Assembly: GCF_003334335.1 (NCBI RefSeq)
Contig: NZ_QOWQ01000202.1
Length of the DNA stretch: 365 nucleotides
DNA from: Escherichia coli
Lineage (GTDB): Bacteria > Pseudomonadota > Gammaproteobacteria > Enterobacterales > Enterobacteriaceae
Direction: 5' to 3' (one strand)
Shown: positions 1 to 365 of the stretch, in pieces
How positions within the stretch are numbered: the stretch's first letter is position 1
Layout: each line of letters opens with the position of its first letter
Translations under genes and position numbers: made by a program
Notes under the pieces: model-generated
What the model was told of the DNA's origin: nothing
Databases searched by the model: none
The model's input: only the letters and a program-made list of their open reading frames with translations

Positions 1-365
1 AGTCCCCACACCCCGTATGTCTCCACACCATCAGGCAGGGTACTGACCTGTATCCGGTCCGGCGCGGGGTGTGCGGTAATGTCCACACTCACCGGCTTAC
101 CGCTGCCGTTAATCAGGTTCACCGTCGATGTCCCCGTCTCCGGGAGTGTCACCTCACGGTCCAGCGTCAGGGTGCGGGTGGCAGCATCAATGGACAGGAC
201 ACGTCCGCCGGTCATAGTCCCGGCATAGTCGTTATCACAGATTTCAATGATGTCACCGGGTGTGTGCCGCAGCCCCTGAGACCCGAGCGTGAAATCCACC
301 GTCTGCGTTTCCAGCAGTTCGGTCTTTATCACCCACAGCCCGGCACGGTGGGCCTGACCGCGGCT
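1..365 (-). CDS. J: Internal fragment (partial at both ends) of a lambdoid phage/prophage host-specificity (tail-tip, central tail fibre) protein J homolog. The codon register runs + 365..363 (Ser) down to + 5..3 (Gly), with + 2..1 the first two bases of the next codon.
   Basis: Seen in sequence: the reverse-complement frame is open across all 121 codons. Leu codons are 9 CTG and 2 CTC, with no TTA, TTG, CTT or CTA, which is typical of a highly used enterobacterial/coliphage coding frame. The translation contains motifs I recall from lambda gpJ (SRGQAHRAGLW-IKTELLETQTVDF, GLRH-PGD-IEICD-DYAG, TGGRVL, TRTLTLDRE, DGSG-PVSV, PDGV-Y-VW). Established knowledge: gpJ is the roughly 1,100-aa tail-tip protein of lambda-like siphophages, and this stretch corresponds to its central portion, not the C-terminal receptor-binding region. 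Limits: the match is from memory, not a database search. The complementary strand is also stop-free in the same register (+ 3..365), but it has no in-frame ATG, uses rare Arg codons (AGG, CGA) and gives an Arg-rich translation with no recognisable similarity. Confidence 0.88.

Follow-up and report, generated by a model that had tools for sequence, protein, structure and literature searches.

A drop in identity to lambda gpJ within a prophage gene J fragment of Escherichia coli coincides with the distal part of a domain inserted in HDIV

The stretch of E. coli DNA analysed here (365 nucleotides, called the window below) carries an internal piece of a prophage tail gene, and the protein that it encodes resembles gpJ of phage lambda closely over one part of its length and much less over the rest. 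The question that this raises is whether such a drop marks a recombination junction or the entry into a part of the protein that evolves faster. Lambdoid tail genes are mosaic, and they exchange modules by homologous recombination, as described by the Hendrix/Juhala-type mosaic model. A preliminary description of the window, made from the sequence alone, had proposed a possible mosaic boundary near position 150 and had named a more rapidly evolving domain as the alternative. The gene itself and its domain architecture are already known, as is, from general knowledge, the mosaicism of lambdoid tail genes; a literature search on mosaicism of the J gene found no specific paper.

The fragment and its place in gene J

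The minus strand of the window is free of stops over 121 codons (frame from position 365 down to 3), and the translation given in the preliminary description proved exact; four short ORFs in the remaining frames are incidental. By megablast, the window is 99.7% identical at the nucleotide level (one mismatch) to the annotated gpJ gene of E. coli JE86-ST05/ST02 and UCPROB-001/002, and 93–97% identical to J of numerous lambdoid phages, Stx-converting ones among them. It covers codons 439–559 of the JE86-type gpJ (1156 amino acids), equivalent to residues 440–560 of lambda gpJ. BLASTP against the lambda protein (NC_001416, 15505–18903) gave a single ungapped alignment over residues 440–559, with 78 of 120 positions identical, and the translation matches the PDB sequences 8iyk_J (residues 440–559, E = 2.7e-50) and 9e7m_Ja (E ~2e-50). 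Since the 365-nt window alone is too short for this purpose, the full Pfam architecture was read from the JE86 gene containing it: FNIII-A, Phage-tail_3, Ig_J, Ig_J_second, Phage_Tail_Tip and Ig_GpJ_C are all six present, in that order, and Phage-tail_3 (PF13550) spans residues 331–497 of the 99.7%-identical full-length protein (E = 2.6e-37). The JE86-ST05 locus (L002) encodes successively a tape measure protein, a tail protein, minor tail protein L, a C40 peptidase (K-like), a tail assembly protein (I-like), gpJ, a Lom-family protein and a tail-fibre N-terminal-domain protein. Every gpJ-family feature that could be tested, i.e. homology, architecture, gene order and fold, is found for the window.

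Of 5426 complete E. coli genomes, 1892 have a match to the window; the number of J-segment copies per matching genome has a median of 2 and a maximum of 11. Of the 6244 places matching the J segment in these genomes, 14 are plasmid-borne.

The drop in identity is a valley shared by the family

Identity to lambda was estimated in the preliminary description at about four residues in five upstream and about half or fewer downstream, and both figures hold: 56 of 71 residues (78.9%) are identical over window 365..153 (amino acids 1–71) and 22 of 50 (44%) over 152..1 (amino acids 72–121). The conserved islands listed for the downstream part (TLP, GSG-PVSV, PDGV and VW) were all found in the lambda alignment. 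Split at this boundary, which follows the motif LTLDRE, amino-acid identity differs with a Fisher p of 1.1e-4, and nucleotide identity to lambda is 74.6% on one side and 56.6% on the other (p = 4e-4). Because the boundary had been chosen by eye, we also used a boundary-free max-chi-square change-point scan with permutation. It placed the change after window amino acid 75 (lambda 514, window nt ~141; permutation p = 0.0006), 4 residues from the boundary first proposed. A chance fluctuation of identity could be suspected in so short a fragment, with merely 121 residues compared and a boundary picked post hoc, but the boundary-free permutation result speaks against it, as does the reproduction of the low-identity region in 99 independent family members (see below); chance, to which we attach practically no probability, is refuted as the cause of the drop. 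A uniform identity to lambda across the fragment, the outcome that would have told against the first proposal, is likewise absent, with 79% on one side and 44% on the other.

The step change in identity that had been claimed stands as a drop but not as a lasting step, since the low-identity region is a valley of ~55 residues that recovers past the window. In a 30-residue sliding profile of the full-length JE86-type protein against lambda, identity is 0.73–0.93 through lambda 420–510, 0.43 at 511–555 and 0.90 at 571–600, and the far wall of the valley sits just beyond the window end.

The valley is not peculiar to this pair of proteins. We compared 99 diverse J-family representatives spanning the region, many of them just 36–55% identical to the query. 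The frequency of the commonest residue is 0.59–0.75 up to JE86 residue 510, 0.34–0.41 at 511–570 and 0.59–0.73 at 571–600. Since the valley lies at the same residues in the 99 representatives, the boundary is a property of the family and not of the window/lambda pair. Identity in the valley is below that of the flanks in 99.7% of 4950 family pairs, and pairs with a flank identity of 0.75–0.85 have a mean valley identity of 0.44–0.45 (sd 0.10). The window compared to lambda-type proteins (flank 0.80, valley 0.48–0.50) falls on this family trend.

The valley coincides with a known structural element. In lambda gpJ a beta-sandwich formed by residues 483–569 is inserted between strands beta24 (477–482) and beta25 (570–578) of HDIV, and this domain is lacking in pb3 of phage T5 (PMC10721106). 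In the paper on the LamB complex the inserted element is named an OB domain that decorates a loop of HDIV, and the tail tube is extended under the gpM ring by gpJ HDIV and gpL HDI (PMC11101478); this tube-building role explains why the upstream part of the window is strongly constrained. The preliminary description had raised the possibility that the divergent part is a distinct domain, and the structural mapping bears this out, with the qualification that it is the distal portion of such a domain (Table 1). The proximal portion is 70% identical to lambda and conserved family-wide. By structural part, the family-wide frequency of the commonest residue is 0.60–0.75 in the HDIV core, 0.59–0.63 in the proximal insert and 0.34–0.41 in the distal insert. 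The inserted domain ends (lambda 569) 9 codons past the window, and the recovery of identity coincides with the return of the chain into HDIV.

Table 1. Features of the window (coordinates in nt) and segments compared between the lambda and JE86-type genes
Feature	Window	Strand	Lambda gpJ residues	pS	pN	Basis
Internal fragment of lambdoid prophage gene J (tail-tip attachment / baseplate hub protein)	1..365	-				Translation, BLASTP, PDB sequence matches
HDIV hub-domain core, long helix and strands to beta24, strongly conserved	237..365	-	440-482			Limits from PMC10721106
Proximal beta-sandwich/OB insert, first two strands (...YAG..GGRVL....TLTLDRE)	153..236	-	483-510			
Distal, weakly constrained beta-sandwich/OB insert, low-identity stretch	1..152	-	511-560			
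Variable loop DREVTLPETGTS (JE86 codons 507-518)	126..161	-				Haplotype tables
Compared segment			382-439	0.67	0.14	Nei-Gojobori vs JE86-type
Compared segment			440-482	0.62	0.09 (0.088)	Nei-Gojobori vs JE86-type
Compared segment			483-510	0.62	0.20	Nei-Gojobori vs JE86-type
Compared segment			511-569	0.63	0.35	Nei-Gojobori vs JE86-type

An AlphaFold2 model of JE86 residues 381–640, built from 29 diverse sequences (pLDDT 87.8), has in the HDIV core a helix at model positions 60–76 and strands at 79–85 and 97–100. It superposes on lambda gpJ (8xcg_J/F) with an rmsd of 2.4–2.5 Å over about 220 columns (TMq 0.78, E ~1e-33), whereas the TMq is 0.45 only with T5 pb3, which is devoid of the insert. 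According to this model, the HDIV fold with its inserted beta-sandwich/OB domain is present in the JE86-type gpJ, and the divergent part is predicted to have retained its fold. The ungapped alignment and this predicted fold together imply that the divergent part is homologous to its lambda counterpart and probably folds in the same way. Replacement by a non-homologous module had also been considered and was ruled out, since the part is 44% identical without gaps and keeps its predicted fold.

Silent sites behave differently from replacement sites. From the Nei–Gojobori proportions for four segments of the lambda and JE86-type genes (Table 1), silent divergence is flat across the boundary (pS about 0.62–0.68) and replacement changes alone rise. 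No synonymous-divergence step was found at the boundary (pS 0.62 vs 0.63), in a comparison whose power is limited by near-saturation: between the two classes pS is about 0.63 for a ceiling of about 0.75, and the valley contains ~48 synonymous sites, so that dS alone leaves room for an ancient exchange in which the distal insert came from a lineage of slightly greater age. Where the residue is identical, four-fold sites match at 34 of 71 positions in the flanks (48%) and at 9 of 22 in the valley (41%; p = 0.63); the corresponding counts are 26/56 for HDIV and 17/37 for the whole insert. Within the window, the change-point is borne by codon positions 1 and 2 (identity going from 0.87 to 0.67, p = 0.0007); for third positions it is not significant (p = 0.09). 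With silent sites flat, the step is thus a replacement-site phenomenon.

The same contrast between domains is seen over a much shorter time scale of divergence, among 80 IMG/VR loci of 96–100% amino-acid identity. In the 61 distinct sequences that they comprise, piN/piS is 0.027 in HDIV, 0.144 in the insert and 0.111 downstream, i.e. the replacement-site evolution of the insert is about 5-fold faster; the insert also has a slightly raised piS (0.15 vs 0.10). Among the matching records from complete E. coli genomes, the share that is at least 95% identical is 88% over window 153–365 and 34% over 1–152.

We regard it as likely that these results reflect a decoration domain with weakly constrained distal strands and loops. 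At the drop the chain would then leave the tube-forming HDIV core and the two leading strands of the inserted domain and enter the distal strands and loops of that domain; strong purifying selection would hold the core, and the distal insert would accept amino-acid changes much more readily. Lambda-type J and the J type of the window prophage would have about the same age from one end of the stretch to the other, and the apparent step would be produced by unequal constraint at the protein level, not by different ancestry; as its cause we infer that constraint is relaxed on a domain lying at the periphery and taking no part in tube building. It is therefore the alternative offered by the preliminary description, a more rapidly evolving domain, that agrees with the data: pN goes up and pS stays flat in the distal beta-sandwich/OB insert of HDIV.

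Two proteins from metagenome assemblies (P0149 and P0163) display an extreme form of the window's pattern. Their flanks are 100% identical at the protein level (92 + 40 residues) and their inserts about 38% identical, and exchange of the whole insert as a cassette was considered for this pair. It was rejected at the DNA level (L087 1371–2100 vs L089 2001–2750): pS in the flanks is 0.45–0.85, showing ancient divergence throughout, and pN in the insert is 0.36–0.44. A high pS in flanks that encode identical protein points to constraint, not exchange; HDIV is almost frozen in these genes and the insert is free to change. As a side observation, the J-like gene of L089 (1076–2000) is 5′-truncated, with homology from about lambda residue 348, after in-frame stops, and is preceded by three small AlpA/HTH_17-type genes; this locus could be what is left of a prophage, or else a satellite-like element with a partial J.

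Recombination in J and the variable loop

Recombination does occur in J. A true crossover between window-type and lambda-type sequences was found in three Stx phages (LC567840, LC727893 and LC727879; loci L083, L084 and L085). The switch lies at gene nt 1758–1773 (codons 587–592; L002 6444–6459), within the conserved block AITAVQHVPEKEAIVDNG that follows HDIV, i.e. 79–94 nt outside the window, whose gene-3′ end is nt 1679. Upstream of it these phages are 92–100% identical in nucleotides to the window type and downstream 88–98% identical to lambda; the parent-distinguishing sites are about 200–207 window-type vs 15–20 lambda-type before the switch, and about 138–140 lambda-type vs 12–13 window-type after it. 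Several partial J proteins of E. coli/Shigella (P0021, P0057, P0083, P0092 and others) have the same switch. In the Stx2a phage Stx2_EH1846 (L083 1–201; LC567840 record 39201–39728), a sodC gene for a copper/zinc superoxide dismutase stands directly upstream of J, on the opposite strand, and replaces the usual neighbourhood of tail assembly gene I.

Given this record, one has to ask whether the distal insert (window 152..1) could derive from another J lineage than the upstream part. Besides the crossover in the Stx phages, such a mosaic junction would be in keeping with the frequent exchange among close relatives, where 45% of informative site pairs over 780 nt fail the four-gamete test and the Hudson–Kaplan minimum is 29 events (PHI-like permutation, p < 0.001), with the deeply diverged haplotypes of the loop at codons 507–518, and with the co-resident J copies (up to 11, median 2), which offer prophage tail genes plenty of material for gene conversion. 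The minimal recombination intervals are, however, scattered along the entire 780 nt and not focused at window ~150, and no crossover like that at codons 587–592 was seen there. The 120 homologous proteins fall into two classes, window-type and lambda-type, the latter being about 0.78, 0.84, 0.70, 0.47 and 0.75 identical to the query over five successive segments, and none of the 120 combines the flank of one class with the valley of the other; nor do any of these proteins, or any of the 4 phages compared at the nucleotide level, change parentage at codon ~510. Neither synonymous nor four-fold sites have a step, and the valley is common to the whole family, with the window/lambda pair on its trend. 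Moreover, since identity recovers downstream, a mosaic origin would need two junctions that both happen to coincide with a structural sub-domain. Three hallmarks of a junction were thus looked for at the boundary, i.e. a change of nearest relative, a synonymous step and lineage specificity, and none was found. Flat silent divergence, unchanged parentage and a family-wide valley make a mosaic boundary at ~150, as first proposed, highly improbable.

A different alternative accepts that the insert evolves fast but sees in it an exposed surface that interacts, for instance, weakly with glycans of the cell envelope or with a partner protein, diversified by positive or balancing selection. It draws on the loop at codons 507–518, which the AlphaFold2 model places between strands 123–126 and 139–143. 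Among J genes otherwise near-identical (96–100%), this loop has several deeply diverged haplotypes, as if old ones had been kept, and its piS is 0.39 compared to about 0.11 in the flanking segments (about 3.5-fold). The amino-acid variation is focused on codons 517–519 (window 123–131), with 2–4 residues at each (T/A, S/A/L/P and T/A). The haplotype of the window (ETGTSTV, with private silent variants) is rare, being found in 2 of the 79 IMG/VR loci compared and in 1 of 61 distinct sequences. The pattern suggests that J alleles convert one another in short patches, or else that alleles persist for long at a putatively exposed loop. It may be added that OB/Ig-like decoration domains of tails are thought to be adhesion aids, a statement made about FNIII domains, and that the inserted domain is an addition, missing from T5 pb3 (PMC10721106). 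Against adaptive diversification, piN/piS is well under 1 throughout, at 0.14 for the insert and 0.38 for the 4 most variable loop codons, and the three lambda tail-tip structure papers cited here assign no function or ligand to the OB/beta-sandwich inserted in HDIV. Co-evolution of the insert driven by docking of the side tail fibre was considered too, and rejected: the Stf collar of Ur-lambda contacts gpV and gpM, not gpJ (PMC12617516). Adaptive diversification as the source of the drop seems unlikely to us.

A bolder form of this idea would make the distal insert a functional exposed surface, for instance an accessory adhesin for envelope glycans or a docking site for another virion or host factor, whose allelic classes, the hypervariable loop at window 123–131 and its diverged haplotypes among them, are maintained and shuffled by selection. 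We hold this to be distinctly unlikely; if true, the insert would be a second, unrecognised specificity determinant in J, besides the C-terminal receptor-binding domain.

Implications and comparison with known systems

On the reading that we favour, weak constraint on the distal part of a decoration domain, the HDIV-inserted OB/beta-sandwich would be the least constrained part of the J hub region. A sharp drop in protein identity within a phage tail gene need not mark a recombination seam, and differences in constraint between domains can be diagnosed from silent sites together with a family-wide conservation profile. The analysis also assigns the real crossover between lambda-type and Stx-type J to codons 587–592, in the conserved block that follows HDIV. 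Beyond annotation hygiene, the importance of these points is small.

Compared to the intragenic mosaicism known in lambdoid phages, the likeness is provided by the J crossover of the three Stx phages at codons 587–592; the difference is that this junction lies outside the window and that the boundary within the window lacks the hallmarks of one. To the gpJ genes of E. coli prophages and Stx phages (e.g. WP_137486890 in JE86-ST05; BP-4795, VT1-Sakai, phage 2851 and PhiR12_2) the window is 93–99.7% identical in nucleotides, and from the best match it differs by a single mismatch. With lambda gpJ (UniProt P03749; PDB 8IYK, 8K35, 8XCG and 9E7M) the window has an ungapped homology over residues 440–560 at 65% identity, and the JE86-type gene shares with lambda its Pfam architecture and gene neighbourhood (tape measure, M-like, L, K-like, I, J, lom, stf-like). 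The two nevertheless belong to distinct allele classes, about 66% identical over their full length and strongly diverged in the C-terminal receptor-binding region (0.27–0.40 identity); in the distal insert they are 44% identical, yet the predicted fold of the JE86-type protein superposes on lambda gpJ at 2.4 Å.
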